Part shown: positions 24,056 through 24,375 of the stretch, piece by piece | Layout: every line of letters begins with the position of its first letter | Position numbering within the stretch: the first letter of the stretch is position 1 | IMG/VR virus record: IMGVR_UViG_2617271079_000001 | Coordinates: 29,667 to 93,666 of that record | DNA length: 64,000 nucleotides | From: a virus | Lineage: Duplodnaviria; Caudoviricetes | Reading direction: 5' to 3' (one strand) | Notes under the pieces: model-generated | Seen by the model: the letters and a program-made list of their open reading frames with translations, nothing else | Told to the model about the DNA's origin: nothing | Databases searched by the model: none | Position numbers and translations under genes: made by a program

Positions 24056-24082
24056 TTGACCACTGACCACAAGATTGACCAC
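24056..24082 (+). repeat. Three direct TGACCAC repeats, putative integrase arm-type binding sites
   Basis: TGACCAC at 24057, 24064 and 24076, about 140 bp from the junction. Confidence 0.55.
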
Positions 24083-24216
24083 ATAAAGTTCACACAGTAG
24101 CGTAAACTCGTGTTAACTACAATTAATTTAAGAGAAAGTAATAAGCTTTGTAACCGTTGATATTACAGTGTTTTCGTGATAATCGTTCGTCATCGTAAAG
24201 TAGCGTTAATTAAATA

Positions 24217-24300
24217 CACGGTCCCGACATCATCATGGTGGGGGAAATCCGGGACCGGGAGACGGCAGAGATTGCGATACGGGCATCCCTGACAGGTCAC
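24217..24300 (+). pseudogene. comGA: Internal fragment of competence pilus ATPase ComGA between the two prophages (attR1/attL2 region)
   Basis: Translates [28 protein letters not shown], the Walker B to His box of the ComGA/PilB/GspE family; 52/84 GC versus AT-rich flanks; no start codon or RBS context. Confidence 0.85.
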
Positions 24301-24375
24301 CCAGTCATAATAAAAGGACCATGCACAAAAGATTTCTGTTAATGTATAAATTAAAGTCGATGTTTTTTTAGGTGG

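Follow-up and report, generated by a model that had tools for sequence, protein, structure and literature searches.

Two prophages with integrases of different families occupy one comGA gene at sites 78 bp apart

The comGA product is the assembly ATPase (motor) of the competence pilus, which serves in DNA uptake. A short piece of this gene lies between two prophages in the DNA described here, raising the question of whether the two elements form a regulated switch on competence or have simply inactivated the gene. The window, which means the whole 64,000-nt stretch that was analysed, comprises bases 29667-93666 of a public 'provirus' record (C1) that is 93,666 bp long. The left end of prophage 1, its tyrosine integrase and the 5' comGA piece are upstream of the window. 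The record (G000:C1:1-93666), rated 100% complete, consists of 1.44 kb of host DNA, a whole 52.4-kb prophage, 78 bp of a host gene and a second prophage truncated on its right. The features of comGA in the record are as follows.

C1:817-1452, upstream of the window: 5' comGA piece, T2SSE profile positions 7-217, 209.6-211 bits
24222..24299, plus strand: orphan middle comGA piece of 26 codons, identified by a T2SSE match and by blastn to L006; host DNA between the two prophages

The window had been read, from its letters only, as carrying a comGA ATPase fragment between two prophages, and this was borne out by a profile match, a step in GC content and blastn. The translation of window 24217-24309 matched the Pfam T2SSE profile (PF00437; cut-off 24.9 bits) at positions 211-239 of 370, with an E value of 6.4e-13 and 48.5 bits. 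The GC content was 0.61 at window 24220-24299 and about 0.30-0.41 on either side. In blastn, the host DNA of the island comprised window 24222-24299 (C1:53888-53965), of which 76 of 78 nt (97.4%) were those of the intact comGA of Rossellomorea vietnamensis NBRC 101237 (L006), and the island protein was identical to host comGA. The genes on both flanks were phage genes, with tape measure, Dit, endolysin and a lipoprotein-like ORF on the left and serine integrase, ImmA-like peptidase, terminase, portal and capsid on the right. The breaks at the two edges were those first described, HG for HD on the left and GHP for GHL on the right. The length of 84 bp originally given for the island holds for the 28-codon match, of which the host-derived part is 78 bp.

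The search of the whole record with PF00437 returned only two matches, the island and C1:817-1452. The latter is the 5' comGA that the sequence-only reading had predicted upstream of prophage 1. It ended in ...LRHDPD followed by phage-derived MIMVLS* (...LRHDPDMIMVLS*), with the comGA frame reaching a stop six codons past the crossover. When placed on the intact L006 gene, the 5' piece and the island overlapped by 18 nt in the same frame, so that the anticipated in silico join of these two pieces was in frame. Orthology to comGA was indicated by 99% amino-acid identity between the 5' piece and the gene heading the R. vietnamensis comG locus, and by the nucleotide match of the island; pilB/pilT-type paralogues in related genomes were at most 46% identical, and a comGB-like ORF follows the comGA piece in L064. 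Profile positions 240-370 of T2SSE had no match anywhere in the record, whose end falls inside prophage 2, and the 3' comGA piece and comGB-GG would be expected beyond that end. Record C1:1-1451 was 97.4% identical to the L006 chromosome, up to and into comGA, and the host is taken to be Rossellomorea vietnamensis-like.

Prophage 1 and its attachment sites were delimited as listed below.

C1:1443-53887, 52,445 bp, the right-hand 24.2 kb being window 1..24221: prophage 1, with PHROGs matches to scaffold, major head, tape measure, Dit, tail fibre and endolysin
C1:1527-2660, minus strand: tyrosine integrase of 378 codons (Pfam Phage_integrase 5.3e-27, Arm-DNA-bind_4 8.7e-20)
24222..24230, plus strand: attR1 core TCCCGACAT, 9 bp, in the D-P-D codons; the same 9-mer is at C1:1434-1442 (attL1) and in intact L006 comGA
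attB1 (L006): left ...GCATGA, core TCCCGACAT, right CATCATGG...
attL1: left, the host left arm; core TCCCGACAT; right, a diverged copy (7/9 nt)
attR1: left, phage DNA; core TCCCGACAT; right, the host right arm
24056..24083, plus strand: cluster of three copies of TTGACCACA (one exact, two with 1 mismatch), candidate arm-type sites in the P arm of attR1

The tyrosine integrase gene was located 75 bp from the 5' comGA piece and 85 bp from attL1. The presence of the 9-bp core at attL1, attR1 and attB1 is the signature of conservative recombination within the core; over the 9 nt that follow it, attL1 and attR1 match at 7. The features of a lambda-type tyrosine integrase system were found here, namely catalytic and arm-binding domains, an integrase gene adjoining att and the core at both ends. 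The only other exact copy of TTGACCACA in the window or L002 was at C1:1505-1513, with the attL1 core on one side and the integrase gene on the other. Across the window the repeat was not enriched (8 found, 14 expected), and its clustering at both att ends is suggestive of arm-type integrase sites. The tyrosine integrase with arm-like repeats that had been proposed for one of the two prophages was recovered in prophage 1 as an integrase with an arm-binding domain, the repeats at both ends being suggestive only.

Prophage 1 is of a type that is rare among the collections searched. No break at its site was seen in any of 60 species-representative genomes. The closest relatives of its integrase had 39% identity among 49 family genomes and 44% in a phage collection, and no close relatives were present among viral contigs. 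Patterns for the attR1 and attL2 junctions were not found in viral contigs, nor was a degenerate attR1 pattern found in metagenome contigs. The right arm of this prophage past the endolysin (window 19918-23432) encodes an M23-type metallo-endopeptidase and an 852-aa protein, the only match of the latter being PHROG 5156 (unknown function; E 4e-261).

The features of prophage 2 begin directly at the right edge of the island.

24295..24299, plus strand: GGTCA, common to attB2 and attP2, the serine-integrase crossover in the G-H codons
24300..24324, plus strand: P' arm of attL2, conserved in the site-C (TGH) prophages of G004 and G001
24300..64000: prophage 2, at least 39.7 kb, running off the record end, with PHROGs matches to terminase large subunit, portal, major head, tape measure and tail protein; amidase
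24376..25044, plus strand: 222-aa ORF of unknown function in the cargo (moron) position between attL2 and the integrase
25106..26557, minus strand: large serine integrase, 483 aa, intact (Pfam Resolvase 7.6e-45, Recombinase 2.1e-27, Zn_ribbon_recom 1.6e-9)
26624..27190, minus strand: ImmA/IrrE-like M78 peptidase of the lysogeny module (Pfam Peptidase_M78 4.2e-10), 87-93% identical to its G004/G001 counterparts

The comGA match ended after ...ACAGGTCA (window 24299), where P-V-I-stop replaces the L-V codons of intact genes. A large serine integrase with Resolvase, Recombinase and zinc-ribbon domains was encoded 0.8 kb from this left junction, in agreement with the serine integrase that had been proposed for one of the two prophages. 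Neither Pfam nor PHROGs gave a match for the 222-aa ORF, and the G004 and G001 prophages have no DNA counterpart of it. Prophage 2 was syntenic with the comGA prophages of these two genomes at 69-88% nucleotide identity. The last bases of the record are the stop codon of a small ORF that looks secreted, 0.6 kb past the amidase. Given that the G001 prophage has about 5 kb more between amidase and attR, the cut at the end of the record most likely falls within prophage 2. Metagenome contigs contained no exact match to a 45-mer from the record end.

The two prophages were then compared with each other. They have different integrase families and head modules, and their GC contents are 41.6% (prophage 1) and 37.0% (prophage 2). 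Common to both are genes of the tail tip, with 50-61% amino-acid identity, and of lysis, with up to 86%, and their nucleotide likeness extends over at most 275 bp at 81%. Such sharing of tail-tip and lysis genes is the usual mosaicism of phages of one host. That these are wholly unrelated phages was rejected because of the shared tail-tip and lysis modules; the term 'unrelated elements' used earlier is slightly too strong, as the shared modules are 50-86% identical at the amino-acid level. The shared segments are approximately at window 14992-17325 versus 55986-58240 and 20992-22554 versus 61875-63389. These genes are substrates for homologous recombination, and a crossover between them would delete the island and everything between.

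A survey of 63 comGA loci from 60 species-representative genomes showed how often the gene is broken in relatives. Counting the present strain, three comGA motifs are hit, Walker A, DPD and TGH. In five of the 60 genomes (L017, L025, L027, L028 and L035), comGA was truncated at TGH|PV. An integrase of the prophage 2 clade was found 0.4-2.5 kb from the break in all five, with identities of 85, 82, 69, about 68-94 (two pieces) and 53%. The first three of these values are those of the prophage 2 integrase to the integrases of G004 (85%), G001 (82%) and L025 (69%), which lie beside the same comGA break. No second comGA was present in the five site-C genomes, where other matches were at most 46% identical. 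A sample of 401 genomes of the order yielded 29 integrase loci at E 1e-90, and a comGA piece broken at residue 229-234 was within the 1.5-kb flank in 8 of them. All 8 were among the 11 loci with at least 50% integrase identity, and none were among the 18 at 40-43%. Within the family, 7 of 49 genomes had the site-C break. Moreover, the nucleotide at which prophage 2-type phages join comGA is the same in other genomes, where the 5' comGA is full-length. The TGH site (site C) is a genuine attB, and the integrase clade of prophage 2 is specific for this codon across Bacillales.

The far ends of two such prophages were available on the same contigs. Complementary 3' halves (residues 227/228 to end) were found 43.9 kb (G004) and 34.8 kb (G001) downstream. 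Both halves were open, and their identity of 81% compares with 78-84% for intact orthologues at the same distance. Accelerated decay of the split 3' halves in G001 and G004 was rejected, since intact orthologues are equally diverged at that distance. When attL and attR of the G004 and G001 prophages were compared with attB of intact relatives, GGTCA was the only shared motif. The attP half-sites in these two genomes were imperfect inverted repeats, and the P' arm of the record matched theirs. The hallmarks of a large serine integrase system were thus present, the domains being read here and the core and inverted half-sites in G004 and G001.

Two of the five site-C lysogens were damaged. In G005 (CH40_1T; C39:118000-166000, L092-L094), the integrase is truncated, with 349 of 483 residues matching, and the right junction lacks comGA residues 232-252. 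In Rossellomorea sp. BNER (L027:10733-12183), the integrase is frameshifted and aligns in two frames. Decay in these two lysogens fits permanent inactivation.

A further comGA site was occupied by another group of elements. In three genomes (L043+L064, L044+L065 and L063), the gene is split in the Walker A codons, GPTG|SGKT. The hosts with this site are Bacillus sp. BHET2, R. aquimaris AcN21-5, strain CH34_1T and one more distant genome (G304), and the loci are given here.

L043:10430-11872: Walker A site locus
L064:9995-10651: Walker A site locus
L044, L065, L063 and L140: further Walker A site loci

These breaks adjoin a separate serine-integrase clade (site A), with 65-85% identity within the clade and about 37% to the prophage 2 clade. 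One further clade member (56%) in the order sample adjoins a comGA piece ending at residue 145, and six more distant members (44-46%) in that sample were not beside a comGA piece. Altogether, phage-split comGA was found in at least 8 of the 60 genomes.

Two other kinds of comGA fragment were observed. Contig 6 of the MAG BLK81 (L066:10001-10285) carries a decayed extra comGA fragment of residues 132-226, with degraded motifs and an internal stop. The phage-side sequence at its start is that of the site-A attR. The fragment is not at the comG locus but downstream of the genes for enolase and RNase R and of smpB, and it resembles a relic that a mobile element left behind or carried. In Pseudobacillus wudalianchiensis (L042:10001-10885), comGA diverges after about residue 247 and ends at 295 aa; no integrase was found within 5 kb of this break, which is of a different kind.

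Metagenome contigs matching window 20000-28000 were also inspected. The prophage 1 right arm was present at about 90-96% identity in soil runs X1 and X6 and in seawater run X5 (X2 is apparently the same data as X1). No public sequencing run contained half or more of the words of this region, the best share being 0.13. One X6 contig covers 24053-24251, with 169 letters of the P arm followed by 30 letters of core and comGA. One X5 contig covers 24211-24299 and continues for 161 letters, of which the first 30 are the L006 comGA sequence after GGTCA. As the X5 contig runs from the island into 3' comGA, site C can be empty in a near-identical host. The bridging rule was 31 letters and the attR1 contigs have 11 and 30 on their short side, so these X5 and X6 contigs are suggestive of single lysogens at the prophage 1 site.

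These results make it likely that two independent site-specific integrations split comGA in three, most likely as a plain double inactivation. Prophage 1 would have entered through its lambda-type tyrosine integrase, with the exchange within TCCCGACAT in the DPD codons, and prophage 2 through its large serine integrase, with the exchange at GGTCA in the TGH codons 78 bp downstream. The landing sites that the phages choose would in this way be those codons of a conserved gene that vary least. According to a published idea of intragenomic conflict, the knockout of DNA uptake may shield the prophages from deletion by transformation. More than 92 kb would separate comGB-GG from the comG promoter, and the competence pilus would not be built; with its pilus operon that far from the promoter, the strain presumably cannot be transformed. 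The earlier proposal of a comGA in three pieces produced by two elements agrees with the 5' piece, the middle piece and the junctions that were seen, the sites being 78 bp apart. Because the gene is a hotspot, with site C occupied in 7 of 49 family genomes, occasional double hits are unsurprising.

A regulated two-key switch would be a form of active lysogeny, in which both prophages excise without killing the cell when competence is needed, and we consider it improbable. The integrase genes, the core and the att arms are intact, and the reading frame would be exactly restored if prophage 1 excised. The open, undecayed 3' halves in the G004 and G001 lysogens point in the same direction. With both integrases and both att pairs apparently intact and the split halves of relatives undecayed, the sequences offer an argument for reversibility. 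A precedent is the active lysogeny of the Listeria monocytogenes comK prophage (PMC7397523). However, comGA acts in dividing cells, so that a switch would need the reintegration of two elements. Moreover, two of the five site-C lysogens have decayed, one with a truncated integrase and a deleted junction and the other with a frameshifted integrase, and hotspot statistics alone can explain the double hit. Since each recombination is conservative, the gene is restored only if both elements excise precisely. The AND gate of the sequence-only reading therefore survives in the logical sense that both elements must leave, and its other option, a gene that is 'doubly locked off', is a better fit to the evidence than a two-key switch. 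It is quite improbable that this is a genuine two-input switch, with precise reversible excision of both elements and two phage decision circuits gating DNA uptake.

The record could also be an assembly chimera, with two single lysogens joined through the 78 bp of comGA that they share. This stretch is short, and single states do exist, prophage 2-type only in G001 and G004 and with site C empty in X5. However, the 5' flank and the island are equally identical to L006 (97.4%), a 78-bp repeat is shorter than ordinary reads and is normally resolved, and host flank, prophage 1, island and prophage 2 are co-linear on one contig. We regard a chimera as very unlikely. It is extremely unlikely that the island is att-derived comGA DNA carried by a phage with an intact comGA elsewhere in the host: the BLK81 fragment near smpB indicates that comGA pieces can travel or be left behind, but here the 5' comGA and 1.4 kb of host flank are exactly at the other end of prophage 1 and share the 9-bp core, the island encodes the host comGA protein with the same DNA similarity as the flank, and phages of the prophage 2 type join 5' comGA at this nucleotide elsewhere.

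Double inactivation by two integrations thus remains the preferred reading of the locus, and it bears on a wider question. Mobile elements that disable DNA-uptake genes are central to the idea of a conflict between transformation and genetic parasites. The double occupancy of one gene by two recombinase families at sites 78 bp apart is new, as is the finding that three integrase lineages in Bacillaceae each hit comGA in the codons of a different catalytic motif (Walker A, DPD or TGH), with two hits in one strain. This constitutes a natural system in which to ask whether phages choose sites for invariance or for phenotype. The locus also provides two integrase/att pairs that are new and apparently orthogonal, and whose attB sites are defined and 78 bp from each other. 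Given that single, double and empty alleles exist, it is a clean test case for prophage excision restoring competence in Bacillaceae.

Several known systems resemble this locus in part. In B. subtilis, skin (in sigK) and SPbeta (in spsM) are prophage-derived elements within a gene whose ORF is rebuilt by a serine recombinase, and sporulation sigma factors control their excision, which takes place in the terminally differentiated mother cell. Unlike their targets, comGA is not a mother-cell gene. The Listeria comK prophage (phi10403S / A118) reportedly has a serine integrase and restores its gene by precise excision, and excision without lysis is said to have been shown experimentally. Prophage 2 is likewise a serine-integrase prophage in a competence gene; in Listeria, however, there is a single element, whereas two would have to leave here. 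In the cited passages of Durrant et al. (2022; PMC10083194), clusters of large serine recombinases (LSRs) are each specific for one conserved site in a single gene, and DNA competence genes are strongly over-represented among their targets. Like those LSRs, the site-C and site-A clades are each tied to one conserved site. The main text of that paper names the Mg-chelatase (comM-type) gene and a prolyl isomerase, with no mention of 'comGA' or 'T2SSE'; double occupancy of one gene, which is present here, is not described in the cited passages. Our literature search found no paper on comGA together with a serine recombinase and a prophage, and none on Rossellomorea together with prophage and competence; the supplements of Durrant et al. 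and Brooks et al. may include targets of the comGA type.

The closest parallels are prophages in the comG locus of other bacteria. In Macrococcus, a comG-locus prophage has been published (PMC6008420), and a prophage in the comGA of Staphylococcus pseudintermedius is also found in PMC8297860. The table of a 2025 review, in its cited part, has S. pseudintermedius as the sole case of a prophage in comGA (PMC12378983). According to the cited passages of Brooks et al. (2020; PMC7029219), comGA of S. pseudintermedius ST71 is split in two at nt 509 of 988 by SpST71A, a prophage of roughly 44 kb that has its own integrase, and this was read as a block to natural transformation. The present locus is like SpST71A, as described there, in that a prophage with an integrase is inserted inside comGA of the comG operon. 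It is unlike SpST71A in that two elements are present here and one there, and in that the host belongs to a different family.
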